A stretch of DNA of 64,000 nt from Chrysomallon squamiferum (taxonomy: Eukaryota; Animalia; Mollusca). The stretch is taken from positions 2,294,001 through 2,358,000 of the forward strand of contig CM022676.1 of assembly GCA_012295275.1 (NCBI GenBank), written 5' to 3'. Shown piece after piece: positions 9,036 to 64,000 of the stretch. Numbering within the stretch: position 1 is the first letter of the stretch; each line of letters opens with the position of its first letter. The position numbers were made by a program, and so were the translations under genes. Below the pieces are notes generated by a model. That model searched no databases. It was not told the origin of the DNA and saw only the letters and a program-made list of their open reading frames with translations.

Positions 9036-9090
9036 ATGACCACAGTAATAACTGTTATTTTGTTAACAAGTTTAACACTGACTTCAACTG
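9036..9090 (+). CDS. Copy A signal-peptide exon
   Basis: ATG plus 18 hydrophobic codons, phase-1 donor GTGAGT; same 55-nt length in copies B and F. Confidence 0.8.
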
Positions 9091-10096
9091 GTGAGTTTTA
9101 CTTAATTTGTTTTTGTTTATCTCTAAATACAAGTCTTCAGTTTTGACCTATCGAGAAATACAGGAAGTGATTTTTTTTATAAATGCGTTTAACAAATTAA
9201 TTTTATTTATCATTCTATTTTATCTAACTGATTGTATGTAATGTACATATAATGTATTTGTGTGTGTGTGTCTGTGTATGTGTTGGGTGTCTGGGTGTGT
9301 CTGTGTATATTTTGTTTAACATTGACTGTTACTCTTCTACGTCACAGTCACATTGACCAGACCAGGAAGTATTTTATAAACAGGGTTTACAAGTGATTTT
9401 TTGTTTGCATAAGCGCAGTGTTGGTGTCATATATTTATAGTTCTCCAGTGGTCGTTTTATATTTATAGCCGAGTATCTTTATCAAAATGTATCTGCTTCA
9501 GGTACATGCGATGTTATCTGACTGATATTGCAGTATATTTATACCAACATTCAGACCGTTACATTATATAATTTATTTTTGAAATGTATACGAAATCTAT
9601 TTGTATTGTGTGCTTGGCGGTGTGTCTGTCTGTCTGTCTGTCTGTCCTTTTCTCTATCTCTCTGAGTGTATTGGCGTGTTTGAAAAATATAATCATGTTA
9701 CTCCCGTCAATTATACTTTCATCTTAAATACTATGTTTTTATTTACATTTTATTTCGAAAAATGTTTTTATTCTATTATTAATCTTTTGCATTTTAAATA
9801 ATCTCTTGAGAATGTTATTGTTTAAATTTTTTCTTTCAAATATAGAGCTTTAAATTTATTTAAATACATTACTAATCTATTATTCTATAAATTTGACATA
9901 GAAAAATTCTTCAATTTCGCTACATTATCAGATGAAATGTTTGAAATATGGAAGCAATGTCATTAAATTAAAATTAATGTTTTCTTCTGATTTATATGAT
10001 AAACGTATTATGCAGATTAAGAAATATATAACATTGACATTGGAAACGTTTACTACATTTTAAAGTTATTTTTTTTTTGTTCATATTTATTTACAG

Positions 10097-10506
10097 GTGA
10101 AGCCGCACAACTCACAATCAGCTCAAGTCCTGTTTATGAAGGAGTTCCTGTGACAGTCAGATGTAGTCTTGGTAACATCATCAGTCATGTTGGTGTACTT
10201 AATTCTGTATCAGTGAGCAGAAGACTTCTCAGCAATCCCAGTACTGATGTTACGATAGCTTCTGCTGTCACAGTAAAGAATGGAGGTAAATCTGTTTCAA
10301 AAGATGTAAACAACTTTGTATCTAGAGCGACAGTGACAGGAAAGTCAGACAACAATGACAAATCAGGATCTTTTGTCCAGATTCAACTGACAGGTATGAC
10401 TTGCAGTGATTCAGGAGAATATTTATGTGTAATTGGTTATTCCACATTTACTGGTAGTCCAGATACCTCTGAAGGTTCTGATAACATCACCATTCAAACT
10501 AAGTGA
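10097..10506 (+). CDS. Copy A V-like Ig exon (reads through the mutated donor to TGA)
   Basis: TTTACAG acceptor; open frame VTVRCSLG...GMTCSDSGEYLC with the Ig B- and F-strand cysteines and a D-x-G-x-Y-x-C motif. Confidence 0.75.
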
Positions 10507-12893
10507 AAACGATTTATTTTTATGAGTTGTCGTGCATTTAGAGAATTTCATTTCTGTTGTTGTTGATTATATAACTTTACCAACGAAAGGAAGGTAAAAC
10601 TTGGTTTTATATAATATTAGTTGTTGACGAATTTGGGTGAATTCACTTCTGTTATTACTGATTATAGAACATTACTAGAGAAAGTAAGTGAAGATGTCAT
10701 TTCAGATAATGCGAAATGTTCGTGTGTTTTATGTCTGTTATTTGTACTTGTGTAAAAGATCTGAGTCAATAAGTGAGAAAGAAAATGTTCAACACAAACA
10801 ATTACTTTTCAAAATTAGTCGAAAAAAGTACATTTGTATATAATACAAAATTCATATATCTATCTATCTATCTATTTATATCTATATATATATATATATA
10901 TAACTGAACTAAATTATAGAAAAACGCAGTGTTTATTTATTTCGTGATTTTTTCTGTTTCAGGAAAGCCAGGTGAAGATGAAATGGTCGTGACACCAAGA
11001 AAGGAGTTCAACTCCTATGTTGTCAGTGAAACTGTAGAAATCAGGTGTAATAGAAATGTTGGTAACCCAGCACAGTCGTGGTCGTGGCACTGGAAGTACG
11101 CTGCTGACATGAAGTGGATCTCGTACCCATACATTGACAGAATCAAAGATGACCCACCTAGACTATCTGGGTGTCACAACAGAGGAAGTTCTGTTTGAAC
11201 ACACACTGTATCTCTCAGTGACAAGAGACGAATGTTTAGATGCATTATGTTTATTCTACTGAAAGTAGACATTTTTCTATTGTTTTTCTGCACTATAGAT
11301 ACTACGATATTTTTATTTTATGATATTTGATGCTAATAACTTTACAAGTTTGAAACTCGTGGTTTATACTGCTTGGTAAGCTTTACAGTTACTCCTAAAT
11401 TTATAAGATTTAGATGTAATAATGACAATAGCTATAAAATATAGATAACACACAAAAATATGATATGATATGATATATATATATAATGCCTTAAATAATT
11501 ATTTTTCCAATACATCTTTACAGTAAAGTTTGTTATGTTTACCTTGAAGTTGAAAATTAATTTGAATACACTGACTGAATAATTTTATCAGTAAAATATT
11601 GTGATAGTATATTCGATGTAATCATGGATGATATTGACTTGGTTTATAATCATCAATTATAGGAACATATTTAACGTTGCCTCCCAACCCAGCTACAAAG
11701 TCCACAGATATTGCTGACTCATCGACTATAAAAGAAAATGTCATCGATTGTGAATGTAACAAAACTGCTGTAACTGCCGTTGCTGTAGTCTCTTCTGTGT
11801 TACTCGTCGTAGTCGGCGTTTTCTTCGTCGTGTACGTCTGTGAAACGGTAAAGCAGTGTTGTTTGACTTTTCCTCTCTACAGTAGTCTGTCTGTCTCTTC
11901 ATTTTTTTCCTTACTTATCCAACTATATATATAAAGCATGCAACTCTAAAAAATGATTTTTTTTTTTTTAAATAAATGATTATATTACAGCTATGAAGAC
12001 GTCATAGTATAAAGTGCATAGACTCAAAGTACGTGACTCAGCTGAACAAAACCAACTCGGAAGCGGATCAACCAATTATGAGTCAGAAAACAGAAGAAAT
12101 TATGTAAATCTAGAACCAAGACATCACAATAGAGACAGATCACGTGATGCACTGCAGCAAAGTAGGTCTGATGACGTCACAGGATATGACAATGGAATAC
12201 AATAGAATGAATATGGTCACATTTTCCCAGTCACGACAGCAAAAGATTTGTACGAGAAAATACTGAACAATTAAAATACAGACCCGTGTTTGTACGTACG
12301 TGTGTTTGTGTTTCTCTACATGATTTTTGTGTAATGCAGTAGAAAGAATGATTAAGTTACACTTATTTAAATTGTAGACACAGTGTCTTATCTCTCCAGG
12401 ATATCAAACCTTTTTAAAAGAACATAACTATATTTCGTTTTATGATAATTAATTCTGAATAAACGTCATGTGATTCATATTTTCAATAAAGAAGGTATTT
12501 GTTTGTTTGTTTGTTTAAATGTGTTTCGTTTTCGTGTTTTGTATTTGTATGTATTTATATTAGCAATGAGATTTATTTTATATGTGTAATGTTTGCAGAA
12601 TAATTCATATTAACAAGCTGATCTATTGTTTGTAGTATAAATAATATTAGCAAGGAGATTTACTTTATATGAGTATTTTGATGTTTGATATTCGTAGGAT
12701 AATTAATATCACAAAGGAGATTTATTTTATGTGTGTTTTGCTTGGTGTACCGATAGTTGTATCATTTGTATTGTTTAGTTATAGCTTCTTTCTGTGTAAT
12801 AAATTTACTTAACTTTTGTCACGAATAATAGAAAAATTACTTTGTTTTAATTTCTTGTTTGACAGCAGTGATGAGTTCTCCAACAGAAATGAT

Positions 12894-12995
12894 GAGAGAG
12901 AGAGAGAGAGAGAGAGAGAGAGAGAGAGAGAGAGAGAGAGAGAGAGAGAGAGAGAGAGAGAGAGAGAGAGAGAGAGAGAGAGAGAGAGAGAGAGA
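12894..12995. repeat. (GA)n microsatellite
   Basis: Perfect run; a shorter inverted homologue lies at ~44033-44058. Confidence 0.97.
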
Positions 12996-62277: not shown

Positions 62278-62517
62278 CTGAAACAGATAAATACACGAAA
62301 TAAATAAACACTGCGTTTTTCTGTAATTTAGTTCAATTATAAACGTTAATTGTATACATATACACACATATATATAGATAGATATAGATATAGATAGATA
62401 GATGAATTTTGAATTAAATACATCTATACTTTTTTCGACTAATTTTGAAAAGTAATTGTTTGTGTTGAACATTTTCTTTCTCGGTTATTGACTCAGATAT
62501 TTTTACACAAGTACAAA

Positions 62518-62684
62518 AGAAGCTATCGTAACATCGGTACTGGGATTGCTGAGAAGTTTTCTTCTCACTGATACAGAATTAAGTACATCAACGTAACTGA
62601 TGATGTTACCAAGACTACATCTGACTGTCACAGGAACTTCTTCATCAACAAGACTTGGCCTGATTGTGAGTTGTGCGGCTTCAC
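62518..62684 (-). pseudogene. Truncated V exon upstream of the copy I C2 exon
   Basis: EAAQLTIRPS...TVRCSLGN...DVTIAS is fused to intron-2 sequence with a stop soon after; no donor. Confidence 0.85.
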
Positions 62685-63732
62685 CTGTAAGTAAACATGT
62701 ACAAAGAAATAACTCAAAAATGTAGTAAACGTTTCCATTGTCAATGTTATATATTTCTTAATCTGCATAATACCTTTATCATATAAATCAGAAGAAAACA
62801 TTAATTTTAATTTAATGAATTTAATAATTTTAAAAATTAAGAATTAACATGGGAAAATTTAGAAATATACTTCCTGGTTTGATGAGCATTTCTGTAATAT
62901 AAAAACACAAAAAGTGTTTAGAAATAAACGATTATGAAAAATATTTTACTTACTGAGGTAAATGTTAAAATATTTATGTTGTAATAGACATTACTGTAAA
63001 CGATCAATACACTACACAAATATAAATCCGTCATTTGACAATTATCTTTACCTGATGAATAACACAGCAAAAATTAGAGTGATTTGTATGATATTATTTA
63101 TACGTCAGCATTAACTGAAATCTAATTCTGTATGATCTACTGTCCTGGTACGTTCGAGTTACATTTTAAACTGAAATGAGTCAGTATTAACATTGTTTAT
63201 ACATAAACAAGACGGTACTTTTCATTTATAAAAAAGAAACATGAGATTTAGAAATAAAATAATTATTACTTTTATATTGATACAGCATACAAACAAACAG
63301 GAAAACAGAAACACATGCAGAAGTGCATAGATGACGTGAAACCTGCATACTGCAGAAAGATGCTTAGCTGCAGTGATTAACAGAAAAATGGAAAGAAAGT
63401 AACACAATAGACTTGAGTGCAGTGCTAATACACTGACTGTTCATAGTTTGTGTTTCAACACATCAAGTAGCCTATTCGTGTTGGGTGACTGAAAGATAAT
63501 AAATCATTATTTACGTAATCCAATAAGCTGGCATCTACAAGAAATGACAAAACATGGAGATTAGCAAATTAAAACATGACATAACATCAACATGATGGCT
63601 GTCATTTTCTTCCGTTAAATCATTTCAATTCAGTTGCCTTCTTAAAACAGTGTTGTTATACGTTAAATATAACAAATGTTAGTTCATACAGCAATGATTT
63701 TAATTCTAAAACCAATTATATTGAAATCTTAC

Positions 63733-64000
63733 TTTGAGTGTTGATGGTAAAGTTTACAGAATACAGCTCGTTGTTACCCACAATGCATCTAAACATTCGT
63801 CTCTTCTCACTGAGAGATACAGTGTGTGTTAAAACAGAACTTCCTCTGTTCTTACACCCAGATAGTCTAGGTGGGTCATCTTTGATTCTCTCTGTGTATG
63901 GATACGACATCCACATTATGTCAGCAGCGTACTTCCACTGCCACGACCAGGACTGTGCTGGGTTACCAACATTTCCATTACACCTGAACTCTACAGTTTC
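63733..64000 (-). CDS. C2-like Ig exon (partial, runs off the window)
   Basis: Open frame [14 protein letters not shown]...[26 protein letters not shown]. Confidence 0.8.

Follow-up and report, generated by a model that had tools for sequence, protein, structure and literature searches.

What kind of genes make up the cluster of immunoglobulin (Ig) receptors on contig CM022676.1 of the vent snail Chrysomallon squamiferum, and could they belong to an immune recognition system? We analyzed a 64,000-nt stretch of this contig (positions 2,294,001 to 2,358,000 of the forward strand), referred to here as the window. It contains about ten copies, most of them broken, of an Ig receptor gene arranged in a tandem array; the exons of this gene encode a signal peptide (SP), a V domain, a C2 domain, a stalk with a transmembrane segment (TM), and a cytoplasmic tail. 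The interpretation we favor, with a probability of roughly 0.55, is that the array makes up the non-inhibitory, rapidly turning over side of a paired-receptor system in which the conserved partner carries an ITIM (a tyrosine-based inhibitory motif of immunoreceptors) and an ITSM (a switch motif). Most of what is known of Ig receptors in inhibitory and activating pairs comes from vertebrates. If the interpretation is correct, a conserved ITIM+ITSM gene accompanied by look-alikes from its own lineage in limpets, abalone, whelks and vent snails would place paired-receptor logic in a protostome class. The window is mostly pseudogenes, and its value is as a pointer to the V-C2 family, in which candidate genes can be named (Haliotis XP_071095905.1 and Lottia LOTGIDRAFT_228571).

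A six-frame scan of the window with hidden Markov models (HMMs) recovered 10 C2 and 6 V exon segments between positions 9036 and 64000, and blastn located further SP, TM and tail exons; a count by eye, fragments included, gave 4 SP, 8 stalk/TM and 5 tail exons. Where intact, the exons measure 55 (SP), 402 (V), 333 (C2), 169 (stalk/TM) and 292 nt (tail), have AG/GT ends, and follow phases 1,1,1,2. Copies A, B, B2 and F are on the forward strand and D, X, E, G, G2, H and I on the reverse strand. A preliminary description, made from the DNA letters alone, had reported the multi-copy organization, the conserved exon sizes and phases, and the use of both strands, all of which held up. It had also reconstructed a 416-aa protein, the length to which the five exons add up; because no single copy has all five exons intact, this protein is a composite of exons drawn from different copies.

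Word-based protein searches retrieved only four Gigantopelta proteins and implied a narrow family, a picture that was overturned by a full HMM search, in which a V+C2 profile matched 298 representative proteins at E up to 0.001. Of the 20 matches that were looked up, 18 were from gastropods (Gigantopelta, Haliotis, Patella, Lottia, Babylonia, Nucella, Pomacea and Batillaria), one was a fish multi-Ig protein, and one was unnamed. The profile search found relatives across gastropods, and we found no named family, in agreement with the preliminary description. Its proposal of a lineage-specific family is not supported: the window copies are a local expansion, yet the family itself spans gastropods around a conserved ITIM+ITSM gene. 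Among the best 150 of the 298 matches, 47 had a TM followed by a 30-250-aa tail, with an ITIM or ITSM consensus in 20 of the 47. These sequence comparisons define an unnamed, gastropod-wide V-C2 Ig receptor family with a layout resembling that of paired receptors.

The closest proteins are four uncharacterized Gigantopelta aegis models encoded on one 53.4-Mb contig (LOC121386525, LOC121386193, LOC121386793 and LOC121386533). They have the same architecture and match the window at 60-68% in C2 and about 36-42% in V, while their TM and tail are unrelated to those of the window copies; LOC121386193 carries ITIM+ITSM. The nearest relative of the window C2 domains is the Gigantopelta ITIM gene (64-68%). 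More broadly, 10 of 178 compared proteins end in the motif pair L-x-Y-A-[DE]-L ... [TI]-[ED]-Y; Gigantopelta, Lottia, Patella, Haliotis and Babylonia are among the genera whose genes or isoforms do so. The five tails of this conserved gene are mutually homologous (z 5.6-38, 20 of 20 directed comparisons), whereas the window tail scored z -0.6 to 1.7 against them. Paralog tails mostly stayed below z 2; only the Patella gene went higher, at 3.6-4.7 versus abalone paralogs. In the ectodomain, identity between the conserved gene and paralogs from the same lineage is 69-96% for V and 77-88% for C2, compared with 22-40% (V) and 23-46% (C2) between conserved genes of different lineages. A single clade of the six conserved-gene C2 domains was rejected (approximately unbiased test, p 2e-50). 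In a 78-row C2 tree, from which matches below P0060 were left out unless named or tail-labelled, six window C2 copies formed one starred clade (99/97), and abalone rows and caenogastropod-labelled rows formed starred groups of their own. We relied on the identity tables, the approximately unbiased test and this tree; a 24-row C2 tree had only one starred branch, and the V tree was run in quick mode. Repeated birth of paralogs from the conserved gene and gene conversion would both fit these patterns. The conserved gene and its paralogs lie on one contig in Gigantopelta, Haliotis cracherodii, Patella and Babylonia, and three H. rubra matches lie on one 2.9-Mb contig. Because look-alike copies with other tails or none share a contig with a conserved ITIM-type gene, the family likely works like vertebrate paired receptors.

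Tyrosine-motif tails had been attributed to the window copies in general. This is true of copy H, the only one with an intact tail, which has 96 aa and five motif tyrosines (YES, YVN, YDN, YDH and YEKI); the tails of A and E are frameshifted and contain a stop, in G the tail is degenerate, and the short tail of F, with YEAV, is of another kind. We take the YxN motifs to be Grb2 sites and YEKI to be a Src-type site. A motif scan of the H tail found no ITIM, ITSM or ITAM (the tyrosine-based activation motif of immunoreceptors). Several abalone paralogs and one unnamed match (P0033, P0070, P0079 and relatives) combine a TM aspartate with tails that bear multiple tyrosines and end in YEKI or YQNV, making them candidates for activating members. 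Homology between the H tail and the abalone YEKI-ending tails was considered and not accepted: the best z was 3.2 among 57 tails, another member gave z 0.0, the BLAST E was 18, and the shared pattern had been defined post hoc. A three-Ig "nectin-3-like" gene (P0067, P0151) has a related LxYAxL/TDY tail and may be an older sister group of the V-C2 family.

The region of copy D is present in five sequencing runs, four of them RNA from one study. Three RNA runs (X1-X3) and one unlabelled run were aligned to positions 20300-24400, with loose ends read by hand. All three RNA libraries gave contigs over the V and C2 exons, far more than over introns 1-2. V-C2 joints were found in X1 and X2; in X2 a D-type SP is spliced to V, in X3 an E-type V end is joined to C2, and an H-type TM exon occurs in X1-X3. 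The family is transcribed and yields spliced SP-V and V-C2 forms. With most copies broken, the birth-and-death cluster of molluscan V-C2 receptors postulated earlier is borne out. One X1 contig that extends past the C2 donor into intron 3 is identical to D, with 15-23 of 190 bases differing in E, H and I. This fits a soluble form of D, or else unspliced RNA or DNA; reading through into intron 3, D could encode SP-V-C2 as a secreted protein. Over 12 residues, an X1 stalk is similar to the stalk encoded by the Gigantopelta ITIM gene, which is a hint only.

The window V exons match Pfam V-set below its cut-off (E 4e-5 to 3e-4). They have the B and F cysteines, a D-x-G-x-Y-x-C motif and a long strand set, and the C-strand Trp is absent. 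A model with a predicted local distance difference test score (pLDDT) of 68-92 over residues 1-130 matches V domains at Z about 11, and motifs and model together indicate that the distal domain is V-type. The C2 exons give weak Ig_2/C2-set_2 matches in the window and stronger C2-set_2 matches in homologs; C2 models are of low quality (pLDDT 46-67; 61 for a single-sequence model). Fold matches for V+C2 were nectin-3 D1D2 (Z 11.9, root-mean-square deviation 5.0, 171 aligned) and CD200R/CD200 (Z 11.6). The hits of a Foldseek search of PDB were all Fab chains, at low TM-scores, and the best PDB profile match (E 4e-6) covered short stretches only. Extra V and C2 cysteines, near-invariant across homologs, may form an interdomain bond, and a cysteine pair in the stalk, which is ~30 aa long in the window copies, may serve in dimerization. 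The hallmark of Siglecs is an F-strand arginine that binds sialic acid; it is absent from the window V exons, which have Val after the F cysteine, and two Gigantopelta proteins have Arg at this position.

Among known systems, the vertebrate paired receptors (CEACAM1/CEACAM3, Siglec-5/14, Xenopus Ceacams, CD33-related Siglecs, SIRP and CD200R) share with this family a conserved ITIM+ITSM gene, a cluster of lineage-specific paralogs whose ectodomain is similar and whose tails are different, soluble forms, pseudogenes, and a V-type distal domain. They differ in that no sequence orthology emerged from the PDB profile matches and the window copies lack an ITAM or charged TM. According to the available part of one report, paired Ceacams are defined by 80-93% similar ligand domains together with opposite tails (PMC5112662). 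The Hydractinia Alr complex, as far as the accessible text describes it, is likewise an invertebrate cluster of single-pass Ig genes with one domain per exon, ITIM/ITAM-type tails and pseudogenes (PMC9546547), but Alr proteins combine V and I domains with an Fn3-like spacer and mostly lack the canonical disulfide, whereas the window copies have V+C2, keep the B-F cysteines, and have no Fn3. The Alr genes are an invertebrate analogue with different domains (PMC9546547, 10.1101/2022.03.25.485889). Molluscan VIgLs (FREP, CREP and GREP), from what is accessible of PMC9334734, are also expanded families of divergent gastropod Ig domains with weak Pfam detection; they are secreted with a C-terminal lectin domain, while the window copies end in a TM and tail, and no lectin domain was among the listed families (best 5 per protein) of 107 of the 150 matches. 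Oyster IgIT, CgNCAM1 and the Ig clusters of pearl oyster and Biomphalaria sudanica, compared by their partly available descriptions, have 3-5 Ig domains or Fn3/lectin domains. In the accessible portions of these papers, molluscan Ig receptors with ITIMs are already in print (PMC11841013, PMC11999971), oyster haemocytes are reported to signal from an ITIM via SHIP (PMC11841013), pearl oyster Ig clusters lie in non-syntenic regions (PMC9646362), and B. sudanica has clusters of Ig-only TM genes (PMC10875847). Hyperdiverse clusters of single-pass Ig genes have therefore already been reported in molluscs; a paired layout is not described in those portions. A preprint on a Biomphalaria "siglec homolog" was set aside, as it concerns peroxidasin and C1q proteins. 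No paper on the gastropod V-C2 family was found in the open-access literature, outside which journals of the Dev Comp Immunol and Fish Shellfish Immunol type largely fall. The available parts of the vent snail genome papers contain no description of it (PMC7895826, PMC7142155, PMC7736800); one of them lists a large "CEACAM5-like" orthogroup, OG0000013, with 130 and 101 members in Gigantopelta and Chrysomallon (PMC7895826), which may overlap with the V-C2 family.

In a paired-receptor system of this kind, the conserved ITIM+ITSM gene would bind a self ligand and inhibit through SH2 phosphatases, and paralogs that resemble this gene in the ectodomain would act against microbes binding its receptor. 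D-type paralogs would act as soluble decoys, and the YxN/YEKI tail of H-type membrane paralogs would serve as a docking site for SH2 proteins of Grb2 or Src type. With the satellite arrays favoring unequal crossing-over, copies would continually be made and broken. The window paralogs are likely immune decoys or counter-receptors in birth-and-death turnover. It is possible, although we put this forward only tentatively, that gastropods independently evolved a paired-receptor complex in which the ectodomain of an old ITIM+ITSM checkpoint receptor was copied or converted, time and again, into activating and decoy paralogs specific to each lineage, and that the array helps the vent snail to tolerate or select chemosynthetic symbionts. 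Several observations weigh against a paired-receptor interpretation. None of the window copies has five intact exons. The window has no ITIM/ITSM tail (tblastn with 12 homolog C-termini plus motif scan) and, judging from these tails, holds only non-inhibitory-type paralogs; with no canonical ITAM in the H tail and no charged residue in the window TMs, activation is not supported by sequence. The shared contigs are 25-106 Mb long and do not represent tight linkage, and conserved genes also produce isoforms with non-ITIM tails. The best fold matches include adhesion molecules (nectins, MUC18), the RNA runs come from one study and their contigs may include DNA, and dN/dS (the ratio of nonsynonymous to synonymous substitution rates) was not significantly above 1 in any of 18 pairwise exon comparisons.

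Other explanations can be considered. The proteins may serve self or cell-cell recognition, as nectin- or Alr-like adhesion molecules with possible neural or allorecognition roles, the paralogs diversifying binding specificity. The best structural matches (nectin-3, nectin-4, CD166 and Lutheran) are in line with this, as is the distant relative P0067, with its nectin-3-like annotation and the same tail motifs. Adhesion genes are usually one-to-one orthologs, however, whereas the ectodomains here group by lineage, and we know of no fusion allorecognition in solitary snails. Hydractinia Alr genes do combine V/I domains, ITIM/ITAM tails and pseudogenes, as described in the accessible text of PMC9546547, but the family examined here has neither the Fn3-like spacer nor the Alr-type loss of B-F cysteines. 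We consider an adhesion role unlikely. A graveyard left by neutral, satellite-driven segmental duplication, with RNA derived from functional genes elsewhere plus leaky transcription, seems about equally doubtful. It would account for the lack of any complete copy, for the satellite content (19,601 of the 54,965 bases, or 36%, of the 9036-64000 span), for the many RNA contigs that are 90-95% alike, and for those carrying SP and stalk exons absent from the window. It would also account for the substitution rates: V dN/dS ranged from 0.77 to 1.56 and most exon values were 0.6-1.5, indistinguishable from 1, in a sample of few sequences, several already broken. Positive selection was not detected in the 18 comparisons. 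The "rapidly evolving" character claimed earlier holds for gene turnover. Arguing against a mere graveyard, the D-H C2 comparison gave a dN/dS of 0.37 (p 0.011 uncorrected, 1 of 9 C2 pairs), C2, TM and tail are intact in H and SP, V and C2 in D, RNA contains the D-type splice of SP to V and contigs with the H-type TM, and in four other genera paralogs of this sort carry annotations as coding genes.

Inflation of the array by assembly error, through uncollapsed haplotypes or mis-joins within satellite, is highly improbable. A and E are 96-97% identical (2.7-4.6% apart), including about 1.4 kb of colinear satellite, and a 200-N gap separates A from all other copies; in addition, B and X flank satellites facing opposite ways, and both lesions of F are homopolymer indels. 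A may thus represent a haplotype of E that was not collapsed, but the two have different upstream flanks, and A has an SP exon that E lacks. The lesions in the tails of A and E are common to both and were therefore inherited. For D, E, H and I, which differ by 5.7-8.5% in introns and lie in one gap-free stretch, the possibility of haplotypes raised in the preliminary description does not apply, and their divergence identifies them as paralogs. The deletion in the V exon of H is not an assembly error, since the same junction turns up again in the independent RNA sample X3 (record 21). The window features are compiled in Table 1.

Table 1. Receptor gene copies and satellite blocks, in window coordinates.
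Feature	Position	Strand	Exons or pieces	Remarks
Copy A	9036..12274	+	SP 9036-9090, V 10097-10498, C2 10963-11249, stalk/TM 11663-11831, tail 11991-12274	Pseudogene; possible haplotype of E
Satellite	12996..18112			A+T-rich; 40/100-116-bp periods; followed by 200-N gap 18113-18312
Copy D	20428..24092	-	SP 24038-24092, V 22661-23062, C2 21879-22211, TM remnant 20428-20542	SP, V, C2 intact; TM exon broken; no tail
Copy X	25697..25790	-		Divergent stalk/TM exon, open, phases 1 to 2, AG/GT ends
Satellite block	28140-29165			Orientation opposite to main array
Copy B	30245..30446	+		5' part of C2 exon with stop, cut by satellite
Main satellite array	30446..43903			A+T-rich
Copy B2 (second piece of B)	36243-36319	+		C2 fragment
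Copy E	44681..47945	-	V 47544-47945, C2 46647-46979, TM 45126-45294, tail 44681-44964	Tail with same frameshifts and stop as A
Copy F	50881..54026	+	SP 50881-50935, V 51554-51941, C2 52656-53006, TM 53515-53653, tail 53900-54026	Divergent; C2 about 50% identical to other copies
Copy G	56100..57704	-	Half V 57560-57704, C2 with stop about 57135-57458, TM fragment 56578-56647	Older pseudogene; degenerate tail
G2	58458..58574	-		3' fragment of C2 exon
Copy H	59759..62684	-	Half V 62518-62684, C2 61945-62277, TM 60422-60590, tail 59759-60050	C2, TM, tail intact; half V deleted into intron 2
Copy I	63733..64000	-		Open C2 exon, runs past window edge

The copies differ in the nature of their damage. 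In A, the V donor has changed from GT to CT, C2 has an in-frame stop and a 3' end deletion, and the tail is frameshifted. The TM exon of D has lost its acceptor and is truncated, and a partial SP duplicate lies at 23811-23865. E has lost the third cysteine of C2, and no SP exon for it was found in the window. In the tails of both A (12024 region) and E (44931 region), a weak downstream AG would restore the frame up to the shared stop, giving a three-tyrosine tail; this AG lacks a polypyrimidine tract and RNA support. F has a partial TM duplicate near 53285-53380 and is complete except for two one-base losses in homopolymer runs of the V exon, so that it is possibly an intact gene if these indels are consensus errors. 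Intron 3 of I meets the intron-1 remnant of H near 62820, and skipping the half V of H preserves phase; from this arrangement, I and H may form one V-C2-(half V)-C2-TM-tail gene starting outside the window. V-C2 tandem repeats are also present in abalone and limpet homologs.

Twice, at 30446 and 36319, a C2 exon is interrupted by the satellite at an identical point, and the satellite also adjoins the 3' ends of copies A and E. Upstream of A, positions 34-7810 are a tandem array of about 450-bp units. A 35-nt exon-like piece lies at 27902-27936, upstream of copy X, and the 24500-27600 region contains a local duplication (about 24530-25370 and 26350-27230) with inverted fragments of receptor intron 1. 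On the reverse strand, a short hydrophobic exon (49704-49761, phases 1 to 2) precedes an exon with a basic start (49300-49535); no ectodomain exon was found upstream of the former, and an exon-like stretch lies near 48920-49030. The pair resembles the TM and tail of another single-pass gene.

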